64,000 bases of DNA. Origin: Promethearchaeota archaeon. GTDB lineage: Archaea > Asgardarchaeota > Lokiarchaeia > Sigyniarchaeales > SOKP01. The stretch spans positions 32,001-96,000 of the forward strand of contig JAEOUA010000011.1 of NCBI GenBank assembly GCA_016839555.1, given 5' to 3'. Each line of letters begins with the position of its first letter. Within the stretch, counting starts at the first letter, position 1. The position numbers and the translations under genes are program-made. The notes beneath the pieces are model-generated. The model searched no databases. It saw only the letters and a list, made by a program, of their open reading frames with translations, and had not been told where the DNA came from. This document shows positions 6,752 through 9,956 of this stretch, one piece after another.

Positions 6752-7669
6752 ATGTTTAGGGAGAAGTTTAAAGAAGGGATAATTTCAGCTCGAGATTTTA
6801 CCAGAGAAGATATTGAATATCTTCTTAAAAGAGGACACGAAATGATGGAAGTCCAGAGCTCAGATATTCTTTCAGGAAAAATATTAGCTACATTATTTTT
6901 TGAACCTTCGACTAGAACACGGTTAAGTTTTGAATCAGCTATGCACCGTTTGGGTGGGAAAGTTATTGGATTTCAATCTGAAGATGTATCATCGGTAAAA
7001 AAAGGTGAAAGTTTAGCAGATACAATTAGGACAGTTCAGAGTTATTCTGATATAATTGTTATTCGTCATCCTATGGAGGGGGCTGCCAAAATGGCTACAA
7101 GATTTGCTGATATTCCCATAATAAATGCAGGTTCCGGGAGCAAAGAGCATCCAACACAAGCACTTTTAGATTTATTAACCATTAAAGAAGAATTAGGCAG
7201 ATTGGATGGATTAAATATTGGAATTATGGGAGATTTAAAATATGGCCGAACAGTTCATTCACTTGCAATGTTATTATCAAATTTTGAAGTTAATCTTTAT
7301 TTTATAAGCCCTAAGGAATTACAAATGAGAAATAGGTATAAACAATATTTAATTCAACAAAGAGAGGTTAAATTTAAGGAAATTACAAATTATAGAAAAA
7401 TTTTAAATGTTTTAGATGTTCTATATATGACACGAATTCAAAAAGAAAGATTTGTAGATATGGAAGAATATGAGCGTGTTAAGGATTTTTATGTATTTAA
7501 GAAAAAAGATTTAAAGCAAACACAACCTCACTTTAAATTAATGCATCCATTACCTCGAATCACGGAAATCCCACCTGAAATTGATAAATCTGAAAAAGCA
7601 ATCTATTTCAAGCAAACCAATTATGGATTACACATGCGAAAAGCTATCCTTGCTGAACTTTTATCTTAA
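6752..7669 (+). CDS. pyrB: Aspartate carbamoyltransferase catalytic subunit
   Basis: FFEPSTRTRLSF, HPTQ, GDLKYGRTVHS, RIQKER and MHPLPR motifs. Confidence 0.97.
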   Translation: MFREKFKEGIISARDFTREDIEYLLKRGHEMMEVQSSDILSGKILATLFFEPSTRTRLSFESAMHRLGGKVIGFQSEDVSSVKKGESLADTIRTVQSYSDIIVIRHPMEGAAKMATRFADIPIINAGSGSKEHPTQALLDLLTIKEELGRLDGLNIGIMGDLKYGRTVHSLAMLLSNFEVNLYFISPKELQMRNRYKQYLIQQREVKFKEITNYRKILNVLDVLYMTRIQKERFVDMEEYERVKDFYVFKKKDLKQTQPHFKLMHPLPRITEIPPEIDKSEKAIYFKQTNYGLHMRKAILAELLS

Positions 7670-7742: not shown

Positions 7743-9716
7743 TTAACTACAATTAAACTTAAAAGCGGGCAATTTAAAATCTAAAATTTGGTCTATGATA
7801 AAGTTGAGATTCTTAGATGTTTTTTGATCAAAATTAATTTCAAATAATGACCCTCCATCTAAAAAATCACTAAATTTTTTATAAAGAGCCATTTTCTGTT
7901 TCAGAGTTAAATTAGTATCTTCTCTTATTAAATTATATGAAGTAGGATTTAATTGAGTAGTATGATAGGTATTATTTCGATCGTGAATATAATTAAGAAA
8001 ATTTTCGTTATGAGGTTGAGTTAAGCAAAAATTTTCATTTTCTTTACGGTTCTCCTCAGATATTTTTTTATTTATAAATTTTAAGATATTCAGAGCAAAT
8101 TCTTGACTTTCCTTCATTCTATCAAGTTCAATTCCACAATGATAATTAACTGCCATATTTAACCCAATAAAACTAATTGATTTAATTGCTTCATTTAATA
8201 AATCATCTGAATTCAAATTGTTGTATTGTTTACAAATATCACTCCATTCGTTTAACTTGTTCAATTTTTCTTTTATAAAATATTCCTTATAAGAAAATAA
8301 TTCAAAAACAGAATTGAGTCGATTTTCTAAGCTTGTAAAAAATAACTCATCATCTTGTTTTGCTTCTAAAGATAATTCATATAAATCGACAAAAATTTTA
8401 TCTAATATAATTTTTAATTGGCTTATTATATTTTTTTCATTTATATTCAAATTAATAAGCTGTGAATTTAAGAAATTGGATTTTCCCCTAAAAAAAATAA
8501 GATTATTAATAAAATCTTTCTTAAAATAATTTAAAAATCTTGTTAACCTCTCTTTTCCACCAAATTGAGTATAATCAATAAAGAGTAAAGCTGGGCTATT
8601 TTCTTGTCTACAGTTGCTTCCCATATAATCATAAAAACTCTTAATAATATTAGGATAAGAATTGAATTTGAATGGTTCTTCAGAAGGAAGAAGACTTTGT
8701 TTTAAATCAATTCTAATATTTAATTTTAAATTCGAGTTATTATGCAAAAAATGTAGATGAGACCATAAAAAATTCATATAATAATTGAAAGAATTACTAT
8801 TTTTATCAAAACAATTTAATAACTCATCAAAATCTATCATTAAAAGCTGATCAGAAAAACAGGAACTAATTTTAATAAGATTGTTAAAAAAAGGGAGGAT
8901 TTTATGTACCCCCATATCTTTTTCTGATGGAATAAGATTATTCTTAAATAAAGGGATTATATTAACATAAATACTTAATGGTTTTAATGCCCAATAATTT
9001 AAATGTAATAATATAATTTTTCTGGATAAATATAAATCTGCCAAATGTTTAGGCAGGAGATTTAGTAAAAGGAATTGCTCGGAGACTTCTGACCCCAGTT
9101 TATTTATAAATTCGTTTGGATTAATAAGAGCACTATTAAATAATTTAAAAGTGTCATAGGGTGGAACTCCTAATCGAGTTAATTTATGACGGACTTCTTC
9201 TAAACCTTCTTCTACTAATATAACATTCACGAATTCTCTGATTAATGGGGTTGTCAAATATTCTATGTTTGTTTGAGATAATCTCTTTTTTACGATATTT
9301 GCTATTTTTTCTGCTAAAAAAGTATTAAGATTTGCCTCTCGAATTAAAAAATTTTTTACTTTTTTAATATCAAATGGCTCAGTAGAATATTTCGAAGTAC
9401 GTATGACACGCGGCTTATTTGAACCAGAAAGAATGCTTTCTATGGTCAGAATTTCTTTTAAAATCTTTCTTCCTAATGCTGTGATAAGATATCCTTGCTC
9501 TTGTGAGGAGTATTTTATTAATTTCGCGTCTTTTAGTGTGTTTAAATGATATGATAGATTTATAGAATGCGGATCACGGGCTAATTCTTTTTCAATCTCC
9601 GAAAACATCAGACTTCTATTAGAGAGAGATAATGCTTTTAATACATCCAATCTGATTGTCTGACCCAATGTTTTCAATTGCTTTTCTAAAAGTGTCGGAA
9701 TTCTGTCGGATTCCAT
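7743..9716 (-). CDS. Winged-HTH + ATP-cone + degenerate class III ribonucleotide reductase (NrdD)-like protein
   Basis: N-terminal ArsR-like wHTH (RLDVLKAL..FSEI..LSYHLNTL..LI..GYLIT). ATP-cone (IRTS..EPFD..K..LIREA..YLTTPLIRE). NrdD-like segments TRLGVPPYD, SISFIGLNMAVNYHCG and LDGG. Ends without a Zn ribbon or glycyl-radical loop. Confidence 0.8.
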   Translation of the reverse strand: MESDRIPTLLEKQLKTLGQTIRLDVLKALSLSNRSLMFSEIEKELARDPHSINLSYHLNTLKDAKLIKYSSQEQGYLITALGRKILKEILTIESILSGSNKPRVIRTSKYSTEPFDIKKVKNFLIREANLNTFLAEKIANIVKKRLSQTNIEYLTTPLIREFVNVILVEEGLEEVRHKLTRLGVPPYDTFKLFNSALINPNEFINKLGSEVSEQFLLLNLLPKHLADLYLSRKIILLHLNYWALKPLSIYVNIIPLFKNNLIPSEKDMGVHKILPFFNNLIKISSCFSDQLLMIDFDELLNCFDKNSNSFNYYMNFLWSHLHFLHNNSNLKLNIRIDLKQSLLPSEEPFKFNSYPNIIKSFYDYMGSNCRQENSPALLFIDYTQFGGKERLTRFLNYFKKDFINNLIFFRGKSNFLNSQLINLNINEKNIISQLKIILDKIFVDLYELSLEAKQDDELFFTSLENRLNSVFELFSYKEYFIKEKLNKLNEWSDICKQYNNLNSDDLLNEAIKSISFIGLNMAVNYHCGIELDRMKESQEFALNILKFINKKISEENRKENENFCLTQPHNENFLNYIHDRNNTYHTTQLNPTSYNLIREDTNLTLKQKMALYKKFSDFLDGGSLFEINFDQKTSKNLNFIIDQILDFKLPAFKFNCS

Positions 9717-9956
9717 TATAATTTTCTTAGGATAATATAATTAGAAATATATCTTATGGAATAATATATGTCTTAATTATATAAAAATTTACTCATCAAA
9801 ATACTATGTCAATAATGCTAATAATATCTCGGTGATATTATAGAATCATTATAAAAATATTTGGGAAAGAATGAGTAGTTGAAAATATAAAATGGAAATT
9901 CTTTCAAAAAATGGTATTATCTAATCTATATAAGAATTTGATAAAAAAAGATTAAT

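Follow-up and report, generated by a model that had tools for sequence, protein, structure and literature searches.

We describe a protein of Asgard archaea, here called P0001, in which, judging from alignments, a copy of the class III ribonucleotide reductase (RNR) NrdD has lost every element of its radical chemistry and carries a winged helix-turn-helix (wHTH) domain at its N-terminus. This protein is probably a dead enzyme that forms homodimers and serves as a DNA-binding regulator sensing nucleotides. In the likeliest reading its role, as a nucleotide-sensing transcription regulator, would be tied to dNTP supply and replication. The gene lies in the window, the whole stretch of 64,000 nucleotides analysed here, and its domains and neighbours are the following.

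7743..9716, (-): P0001 coding sequence, 657 aa, wHTH, ATP-cone and dead NrdD (ORF, Pfam, homologues, model and fold search)
9423..9695, (-): winged helix-turn-helix, aa 8-98, DUF7347, ArsR-like (Pfam and secondary structure of the model)
9192..9419, (-): ATP-cone, aa 100-175 (Pfam profile matches)
8967..9191, (-): NrdD N-terminal helices, aa 176-250 (highest conservation; predicted homodimer interface)
7746..8966, (-): degenerate ten-stranded-barrel body, aa 251-657 (fold search and alignment; catalytic elements gone)
6752..7669, (+): pyrB, aspartate carbamoyltransferase catalytic chain, convergent to the P0001 gene
9957..10571, (-): rpS7, final gene of the rpoA1-rpoA2-L30e-NusA-S12-S7 cluster, upstream of the P0001 gene on the same strand

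Domain architecture and fold

A preliminary description made from the sequence had divided P0001 into a wHTH, an ATP-cone and an NrdD-like body, and Pfam matches confirm this architecture. DUF7347 (PF24038) matches aa 14-88 with an E-value of 1.9e-8 and 34.8 bits, above the Pfam gathering cut-off of 27.6. In the AlphaFold2 model (pLDDT 78) this region has the wHTH topology, with helices at 6-31, 38-44 and 54-63, a strand hairpin at 67-78 and a further helix at 80-98; residues N53, H57 and L58 of the recognition helix are invariant in the family alignment. The ATP-cone match at aa 105-175 scores 24.4 bits on the protein, marginally below the Pfam cut-off of 25.8, and 28.1 bits, above that cut-off, in the genome-wide profile scan. 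Over residues 102-263, identity with the N-terminal part of the NrdD encoded in the same genome, its ATP-cone included, is 29%. The following segment, aa 176-250, is equivalent to the region which we take to hold the specificity site of solved NrdDs. The NRDD profile (PF13597) matches aa 445-655 (E 8e-17), and of its 562 positions only 286-505 are covered. Searching the PDB by sequence with full-length P0001 gave no match, and the fold search alone was informative: the top Foldseek matches are all class III RNRs (9dau, 8p28, 4u3e and 1h78; E 8e-18 to 1e-10, TM ~0.5), placing an NrdD/PFL-like ten-stranded barrel in P0001. The motifs singled out earlier, TRLGVPPYD, SISFIGLN..HCGIEL, CLTQP and LDGG, are all present and fall on conserved positions of the family.

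The predicted oligomer is a homodimer. Modelled from an alignment built in the present analysis, aa 176-657 scored 0.76 (best of three controls 0.00), above a mark that was passed by 20 of 30 proteins whose solved structures are same-chain pairs and by 1 of 23 whose structures are single chains; NrdD dimers have already been solved, and the score may reflect structures that the predictor had been trained on. Contact agreement between runs was at least 92%, the pLDDT of the partner at least 76, and the predicted interface comprises residues 179-245. P0001 probably oligomerises in the manner of the NrdD dimer.

Loss of catalytic elements

The loss of the catalytic Cys and of the Gly loop, expected from the preliminary description, was mapped in an alignment of ten regulators (P0001 and relatives) against the NrdD of the same genome and NrdD orthologues. 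The finger-loop segment SQCCR, which carries the thiyl-radical Cys in the NrdD of this genome, is deleted in all ten. The second active-site Cys is also lost, since NrdD RPFC reads KPLS in P0001 and RPLS, RPLG, RPLA or RPRS in the relatives, and GDIHVH of NrdD is aligned with RKIILL. The frame is intact over 657 aa and ends, as described before, at FKFNCS (...AFKFNCS), just past the last barrel strand; the Zn ribbon CxxC..CxxC and the glycyl-radical loop RITGYY are missing. The GG motif of the barrel and part of the QP motif survive, and P0001 scores 45.9 bits with the NCBIfam NrdD equivalog TIGR02487, whose cut-off is 326.35. By these alignments P0001 is a catalytically dead copy of NrdD.

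A separate intact NrdD (703 aa), which has both CxxC..CxxC and RITGYY, is encoded in the genome, as the pseudo-enzyme proposal supposed. The same genome encodes a class II RNR of 748 aa, found through its ATP-cone, and TIGR00244, the model for NrdR, has no match anywhere in it.

Distribution and genomic context of the P0001 family

More than 480 homologues of ~655-665 aa share the wHTH-ATP-cone-NrdD architecture, and 690 matches to P0001 were found among 1.84 billion representative sequences. Species genomes contain 323 loci of this type, the best 80 of which are nearly all labelled Promethearchaeota, Hermod, Hod or Thor. Exactly one copy of the gene is present in each of the high-quality relatives (12/12), and rpS7 and convergent pyrB flank it in 78/78 species loci. 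The family is a conserved, single-copy, fixed-position gene across Asgard archaea. Its members are named 'anaerobic ribonucleoside-triphosphate reductase' in databases, and no description of the family was found in the literature on Asgard RNRs, DUF7347, RNR pseudoenzymes and ATP-cone/HTH proteins or in a preprint on RNR phylogeny. With rpS7 and pyrB as neighbours, there is no radical-SAM activase (NrdG) beside the gene, in agreement with the preliminary description, and RNR genes are not adjacent to it in this lineage. The idea that P0001 substitutes for PyrI as a partner of the neighbouring PyrB was rejected because pyrI is encoded elsewhere in the genome.

Conservation is uneven along the protein. 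Majority frequencies are 0.78 in the dimer region, 0.75 in the ATP-cone and 0.68 in the wHTH, and fall to 0.39 (aa 251-435) and 0.56 (aa 436-657) in the barrel. The preliminary description also took P0001 for a pseudo-enzyme and not for a copy that is merely truncated. Relatives in the Jord/Frey and Atabey lineages do keep the Zn ribbon and a Gly-containing tail, but both catalytic Cys are gone there too. These relatives are therefore less decayed pseudo-enzymes and give no evidence that P0001 is just a shortened copy; its short end is not a local truncation.

Conserved elements in the promoter and at the start of the gene

Several short elements upstream of the gene and within its first codons are conserved among orthologues.

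9821..9841, (-): Box A, ATATCACCGAGATATTAT, within a perfect 8+8 inverted repeat ATAATATC-N5-GATATTAT
9778..9790, (-): BRE/TATA-like AAATTTTTATATA, kept in the promoters of orthologues (assigned as promoter from the consensus alone)
9760..9770, (-): CATAT(A)TTATT, ~10 nt past the TATA box, likely start-site region (conservation)
9701..9709, (-): Box B copy 1, CCGACAGAA, P0001 codons 3-5; family consensus CCGACAAAA at +7 from the start codon
9692..9698, (-): second CCGACA half-box, 11 nt downstream of copy 1, only in the closest relatives of P0001

Box A is a new conserved cis-element, an imperfect palindrome with the consensus ATATCACC-N3-ATATTAT, ~125 nt upstream of the P0001 gene. It has a PWM score above 14 in 74/78 species, at about -125. 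A scan of the genome (3.74 Mb) found a single other comparable site, the second-best score, 58 nt upstream of xerA-cdc6. Relatives retain the site at this position, with a score above 14 in 12 of 30 and in 0 on the antisense strand; a scan of families f2-f4 with the matrix of family f1 did not find Box A at xerA. Box A is absent from nrdD promoters.

Box B, likewise new, is found at +7 from the start codon of P0001 orthologues in 69 of 78 species. Codon 4 of the gene is GAC in 67/67 sequences (the share of GAC elsewhere in the same genes is 0.17), and codon 3 is nCC in 67/67 although the encoded residue varies (S, A, T or P), a pattern that clearly points to selection at the nucleotide level in codons 3-5. 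The same box is common to the P0001 gene, nrdD, a truncated nrdD paralogue and a small RHH gene. At nrdD, CCGACAAA lies 73-96 nt upstream of the gene in 26 of 30 species, with zero other copies in 100 kb of those loci, and only two stray copies were found in 719 kb around the regulator genes. There is none near pyrB, rpS7 or L44e in the 78 loci, and none upstream of the class II RNR or of a stand-alone ATP-cone gene. The RHH gene, which encodes 66 aa, is present in 60/61 genomes of the order, and Box B stands in its core promoter, directly past the TATA box. In family f1 the distance is 3-4 nt and 18 of 30 copies are exact, most others being one base off; the box is also found at the RHH gene in families f2, f3 and f4. 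In a sister family, the long-form relatives have an upstream Box B, in some cases as TGTCG-N4-CGACA inverted pairs. In most promoters it is asymmetric and single, which is unusual for a dimeric wHTH.

Box B is not the mark of a large regulon. The genome of 3.74 Mb has 14 exact copies against ~20 expected from base composition, and in three other genomes the counts equal those of a reversed-pattern control; any regulon is therefore small. The other copies in this genome appear fortuitous: they precede a HisKA/receiver gene or fall within an unannotated 364-aa ORF, in a different frame. A small leader ORF at the Box B of nrdD was rejected, its start codons being inconsistent across species.

Comparison with known systems

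The closest parallels to P0001 come from regulators and enzymes of other kinds. Like NrdR (TIGR00244; PMC9110341, PMC12176259), P0001 joins a DNA-binding module to an ATP-cone, which in P0001 would likely read ATP/dATP. NrdR has an autoregulated gene and binds paired boxes at RNR promoters; for P0001 autoregulation and a link to RNR promoters are candidate features, the latter through the conserved box shared with nrdD, which may instead be read by an RHH factor. The DNA-binding module is an N-terminal Zn ribbon in NrdR and a wHTH in P0001, which has ~480 extra residues of dead NrdD. NrdR forms ATP-cone-driven tetramers to dodecamers, whereas P0001 is probably assembled on the NrdD dimer, and NrdR-box palindromes are not present for P0001. 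Few archaea have NrdR (PMC9110341) and this genome lacks it, so the niche is open.

With NrdD itself (PF13597, TIGR02487) P0001 shares the ATP-cone, the N-terminal helical dimer region and the ten-stranded barrel. It differs in lacking the thiyl-radical Cys, the second Cys, the finger loop, the Zn ribbon and the glycyl-radical loop, and in having an extra N-terminal wHTH. In NrtR, a Nudix-related regulator of NAD synthesis (PMC2330246), the fold of a pathway enzyme is likewise reused as an effector sensor next to a winged helix; the fold and the pathway are different, and P0001 reuses a whole large radical enzyme including its allosteric domain. The imperfect palindrome in its own promoter recalls the ArsR/SmtB winged-helix repressors, to whose models P0001 has weak matches, all below cut-off (HTH_5 14.9 vs 22, HTH_20 23.7 vs 27, metalloregulator model NF033788 21.9 vs 55). 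Unlike in these repressors, no metal site is evident, and in the model dimerisation probably comes from the NrdD body.

Proposed function and alternative explanations

In the regulator reading, ATP/dATP or dNTP levels would be read by the ATP-cone and possibly also by the former specificity site of the dimer interface. This readout would alter the way in which the dimer's two wHTH domains contact an operator, and the gene itself, together with genes of dNTP supply and replication, would then be transcribed in step with the nucleotide pool. As the operator, Box A (own and xerA-cdc6 promoters) comes close to an even chance; Box B (nrdD and the 5' end of the gene itself) is possible, and that neither serves is somewhat less so. 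A fuller circuit, in which the dead RNR as a dNTP/ATP-sensing factor binds Box A both at its own promoter and at that of xerA-cdc6, and a Box B read by the RHH protein links its expression to nrdD, would couple dNTP supply to replication initiation; as a whole it is rather doubtful.

It may be, although we do not favour it, that the P0001 gene is only a target in the Box B network. The RHH protein or another factor would bind CCGACAAAA and co-regulate nrdD, the truncated nrdD paralogue, its own gene and that of P0001, and the wHTH of P0001 would act otherwise, for example on Box A at xerA-cdc6 or by sequence-independent DNA binding. This overlaps with the regulator reading and drops direct control of nrdD by P0001. 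Small archaeal RHH factors, aCcr1-3, recognise boxes of 9 nt that lie between -50 and 0 at cell-cycle genes (PMC13199686), and the place of Box B just past the RHH TATA box in f1, with its presence at the RHH gene in f2, f3 and f4, would fit such a factor. In family f4 the box is kept at the RHH gene and a P0001 homologue was not found in 4 genomes, so Box B may be an RHH operator with the P0001 gene as one target. However, these genomes are 63-88% complete, and the f4 nrdD loci have no Box B; the box at nrdD therefore co-occurs with the P0001 homologue. The quite different arrangements of Box B at the genes of the long-form relatives are what autoregulation predicts, and the motif of aCcr1 (a Sulfolobales RHH) is unlike Box B.

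P0001 might instead be a non-transcriptional partner of NrdD, forming a heterodimer through the NrdD dimer interface and modulating or sequestering the enzyme, with the wHTH used for protein contacts or tethering. The dimer region is the most conserved part of P0001 and the closest to the NrdD of the genome, and co-regulation of the two genes through Box B would suit this role. We regard it as unlikely: genus g3 keeps the P0001 homologue and its Box B, yet nrdD was not found in 4/4 genomes that are 89-100% complete, and the conserved recognition helix and the palindromic box in the gene's own promoter also count against it. That P0001 is still an enzyme, either a reductase with a glycyl-radical domain supplied in trans or an NrdD fold with different chemistry, is very improbable. 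The surviving GG and partial QP motifs and the moderately conserved second barrel half would be in its favour, but both Cys and the whole finger loop are gone in every aligned member, the first barrel half is the least conserved part, the TIGR02487 score is far below its cut-off and the genome has real class III and class II RNRs. Least credible is a functionless truncated or decaying nrdD copy. P0001 does end where NrdD continues and its middle is poorly conserved, but the comparative data refute decay, as the preliminary description had held: the frame is intact, length and architecture are constant in hundreds of species, and the gene keeps one copy, its chromosomal position and its promoter elements.

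Implications

To our knowledge, the transcriptional control of dNTP synthesis in archaea, and in Asgard archaea in particular, is essentially unknown. The P0001 family is probably an undescribed nucleotide-sensing gene regulator mislabelled as an enzyme. The hundreds of database entries that name its members as a reductase are wrong, and class III RNR capacity is therefore overstated in metabolic reconstructions of Asgard archaea. If the regulator reading is true, an entire radical enzyme has been reused, together with its allosteric apparatus, as the sensor of a transcription factor, which would be rare. The list of candidate targets is short, comprising the P0001 gene, nrdD, the truncated nrdD paralogue, the RHH gene and xerA-cdc6, with two sharply defined boxes. 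A circuit joining dNTP supply to replication, if it exists, would be located in the closest prokaryotic relatives of eukaryotes.

A dead reductase fused to a winged helix

The protein considered here, designated wHTH-NrdD, combines an N-terminal winged helix (wHTH) and an ATP-cone with a barrel related to NrdD, the class III ribonucleotide reductase (RNR).

7743-9716, minus strand: wHTH-NrdD coding sequence, an unbroken frame of 657 codons
aa 14-88 of the product: DUF7347 winged helix, Pfam match above cut-off
aa 105-175 of the product: ATP-cone, Pfam match

ArsR-type Pfam profiles also match the wHTH, more weakly. For the ATP-cone, the protein itself gives 24.4 bits, just short of the cut-off, and a six-frame scan of the genome 28.1 bits, above it. 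The Pfam NRDD match spans only positions 286-505 of the 562 in the profile, and the score against the NCBIfam NrdD equivalog, 45.9 bits, does not reach the cut-off of 326. AlphaFold2, given 30 family members, predicts (pLDDT 78) a wHTH of canonical form together with a helical ATP-cone and a barrel; the best matches to this model in Foldseek are all class III RNRs, from S. thermophilus, P. copri, T. maritima and phage T4. Pfam, the structural model and Foldseek thus agree with the architecture proposed in the preliminary description.

A working NrdD is encoded elsewhere in the genome (703 aa, with ATP-cone, RPFC, SQCCR, CxxC..CxxC and RITGYY), so that a separate, intact nrdD with all catalytic motifs is indeed present. 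This NrdD and six orthologues were aligned with ten wHTH-NrdD family members and two longer relatives. In the ten members, the RPFC cysteine is replaced by Ser, Gly or Ala, and the finger-loop segment, thiyl cysteine included, is missing altogether. The chain, whose GDIHVH motif is eroded, stops directly past the last barrel strand; a GG motif survives, as does a portion of the QP motif. The alignment bears out the earlier claim that the catalytic elements and the glycyl-radical end are lost and, given the cysteine, finger-loop and C-terminal losses, identifies wHTH-NrdD as a pseudo-enzyme.

The genome also encodes a class II (B12-type) RNR of 748 aa with an N-terminal ATP-cone (G000:C6:307268-309514; L193:769-3015), which a genome-wide PF02867 scan missed, and a stand-alone ATP-cone protein of 103 aa on contig C10 (L189:1459-1770). 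Neither gene has upstream either of the two cis-elements described below, Box A and Box B. No NrdR was detected in this genome with the TIGR00244 profile, and a MazG/dUTPase-like gene follows nrdD. In four relatives (G002:C1, G011:C45, G141:C111, G092:C35), nrdD frames of 1214-1687 aa match NrdD in two blocks, which suggests that the working reductase carries inteins there. In a genome from sister family f2 (L056, G024), the top NrdD homologue has RPFS, a finger loop without CC, and KITDYY replacing RITGYY (Gly to Asp); this may be a further inactive reductase, with its C-terminal domain still present. A second type of dead NrdD (603-624 aa, with ATP-cone and without wHTH) is common in the archaeal family, as seen in L055, L058, L064, L065 and L067 (genomes G010, G018, G009, G007 and G014, respectively). 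It lacks the finger loop and the entire C-terminal Zn/Gly domain, has mostly lost the RPFC cysteine, and has Box B upstream of several copies; no copy was found in the window's own genome.

Distribution and genomic context

The wHTH-NrdD gene is not a local accident. Searched exhaustively, 1.84 billion representatives yielded 690 matches, exactly one copy is present in each of 12 high-quality relatives, and a scan of species genomes recovered 323 loci, the best 80 of which are nearly all labelled Promethearchaeota, Hermod-, Hod- or Thorarchaeota. Most members are named 'anaerobic ribonucleoside-triphosphate reductase' in NCBI and JGI, and no published description of the family was found in the literature searched. 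The possibility that the present copy is merely truncated is countered by more than 480 proteins of ~655-665 aa with the same architecture. Longer relatives (~720-890 aa) come from the Jord/Frey, Atabey and Odin lineages; two of them still have the Zn ribbon and a tail with Gly (RNIGPY, RLNGPM), yet they too lack both cysteines. Judging from these differing losses, the fusion is old and decay reached different depths in different lineages.

The locus is fixed: rpoA1-rpoA2-L30e-NusA-S12-S7 is followed by the wHTH-NrdD gene, tail-to-tail with pyrB, beyond which lie L44e-S27e, TFS, PCNA, primase and GINS. Convergent pyrB was found at 78 of 78 loci, a persistent pairing; pyrI is encoded elsewhere. 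The exception among the loci examined is a distant relative, P0193 (773 aa; metagenome contig L105:5085-8322), which is inverted, co-directional with pyrB and overlaps the pyrB end by 11 nt, forming an apparent operon.

Conservation is uneven along the protein.

Majority-residue frequency by region of wHTH-NrdD
NrdD N-terminal helices (aa 176-250): 0.78
ATP-cone: 0.75
wHTH: 0.68
Barrel, second half: 0.56
Barrel, first half (former active-site side): 0.39

Modelled as two copies, aa 176-657 scored 0.76, versus 0.00 for the best of three controls, and passed a mark met by 20 of 30 proteins solved as one-chain pairs and 1 of 23 solved as single chains. Between runs, 92% or more of the contacts recurred, with partner pLDDT of at least 76. 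The predicted interface, residues 179-245, coincides with the best conserved segment. Because NrdD dimers are already solved, the pass shows likeness and may reflect structures that the predictor had learned. The specificity site of NrdD sits at this dimer interface.

Two conserved cis-elements

The comparison of upstream regions started with 21 orthologues and was widened to 78. In 74 of 78 species, Box A, ATATCACC-N3-ATATTAT[C], is found near position -125 relative to the start codon; about 35 nt past it comes a consensus BRE/TATA, AAATTTTTATATA, followed by CATATTATT.

9821-9838: Box A in the window, a perfect inverted repeat ATAATATC-N5-GATATTAT
9701-9709: Box B in the window, CCGACAGAA, with a second CCGACA 11 nt downstream
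G000:C10:406979-406996 (L072:3980-3997): second Box A, ATATCACCTAAATATTAT, 58 nt upstream of the gene for XerA recombinase

In a whole-genome matrix scan the window site scored 25.9 bits and one other strong site, that of xerA, 21.6, the next best reaching 16.4. The xerA gene is followed by orc1/cdc6, and Box A links the wHTH-NrdD gene to xerA-cdc6. Relatives preserve the spacing of the xerA box (12 of 30 above 14 bits, ~22 of 30 recognisable by eye; 0 of 30 on the antisense strand); no such box was seen at xerA in sister families. In single genomes, ftsZ and a NERD-UvrD helicase gene likewise have Box A upstream. The third-best site (TAATATCACAGAGATATTACA, 15.8 bits, G000:C1:67071-67094; L338:572-595) precedes an Arf-family small GTPase gene by 80 nt, and a Ras-family GTPase gene occurs near xerA-cdc6 (L072:745-1515).

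In 69 of 78 species, codons 3-5 of the wHTH-NrdD gene contain Box B, CCGACAAAA, positioned at +7 relative to the start codon. GAC serves as codon 4 in 67 of 67, even though it makes up only 17% of Asp codons elsewhere in the same genes. Codon 3 is nCC in 67 of 67 yet encodes different residues (Ser 37, Ala 17, Thr 11, Pro 2), a pattern indicating selection on DNA or RNA rather than protein. Only two stray copies occur in the 719 kb surrounding wHTH-NrdD genes. In 26 of 30 species the 8-mer CCGACAAA precedes nrdD by 73-96 nt, with no further copy in 100 kb of these loci; it is also present upstream of a truncated nrdD paralogue. Long-form relatives in f2 have Box B upstream of their own genes, partly as TGTCG-N4-CGACA inverted pairs, which argues for recognition at the DNA level. 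Start codons in the 78 species are GTG (33), TTG (27) and ATG (18), the window start being 9714-9716; weak starts are unusually frequent, invariably at exactly 7 nt ahead of Box B, and this pattern could point to control via translation or RNA.

In genus g3 the wHTH-NrdD gene is kept and nrdD was not found in four of four genomes; tracing Box B there led to a small gene that occurs almost throughout the order (60 of 61 genomes).

G000:C12:182185-182441 (L284:1186-1442), outside the window: 66-aa ribbon-helix-helix (RHH) gene with a Box B copy

Box B follows the RHH TATA box by 3-4 nt, exact in 18 of 30 genomes of the window's family f1, its own included, and occurs at this gene in f2, f3 and f4 as well. 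The promoter layout, TTAAAGGATTAATA-N6-ATTTATAAA-N3-TCCGACAAAAT with the box CCGACAAA(A), is strongly conserved.

Proposed function

We regard wHTH-NrdD as probably, though by no means surely, a homodimeric nucleotide-sensing transcription regulator. The ATP-cone, perhaps together with the old specificity site, would read ATP/dATP/dNTP and thereby reposition the two wHTH domains of the dimer on an operator. Box A is the somewhat more likely operator, because it is palindromic, stands at the gene's own promoter and is common to xerA-cdc6; Box B, which occurs both at nrdD and in the 5' end of the gene itself, is the alternative. The protein resembles NrdR in joining an ATP-cone to a DNA-binding module and in its probable tie to RNR genes, and is proposed to work similarly by analogy; lacking a Zn ribbon and a TIGR00244 match, it is not a member of that family. 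NrtR offers the same concept of an enzyme-derived regulator.

Other readings must be weighed against a regulatory role. Residual enzyme activity would draw on the surviving motifs, yet the protein, though homologous to NrdD, has lost every radical-chemistry element. It might instead be a dead partner subunit of NrdD, a reading that the g3 genomes speak against, or the gene might be a decay product, which is very unlikely in view of its intact frame and wide conservation. Finally, the gene could be a pure target of an RHH regulon, the RHH protein being a candidate master regulator of a small network including nrdD. Family f4, in which neither a wHTH-NrdD copy nor Box B at nrdD was found (four genomes, 63-88% complete), retains the box at its RHH gene; Box B may therefore be the RHH factor's operator, with the wHTH-NrdD gene and nrdD as co-regulated targets. 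Small archaeal RHH factors do read 9-nt promoter boxes, but the Sulfolobales RHH motif is unrelated to Box B (PMC13199686). Alternatively, wHTH-NrdD itself may bind Box B. Under either reading, the shared element places the wHTH-NrdD gene in one small network with nrdD.
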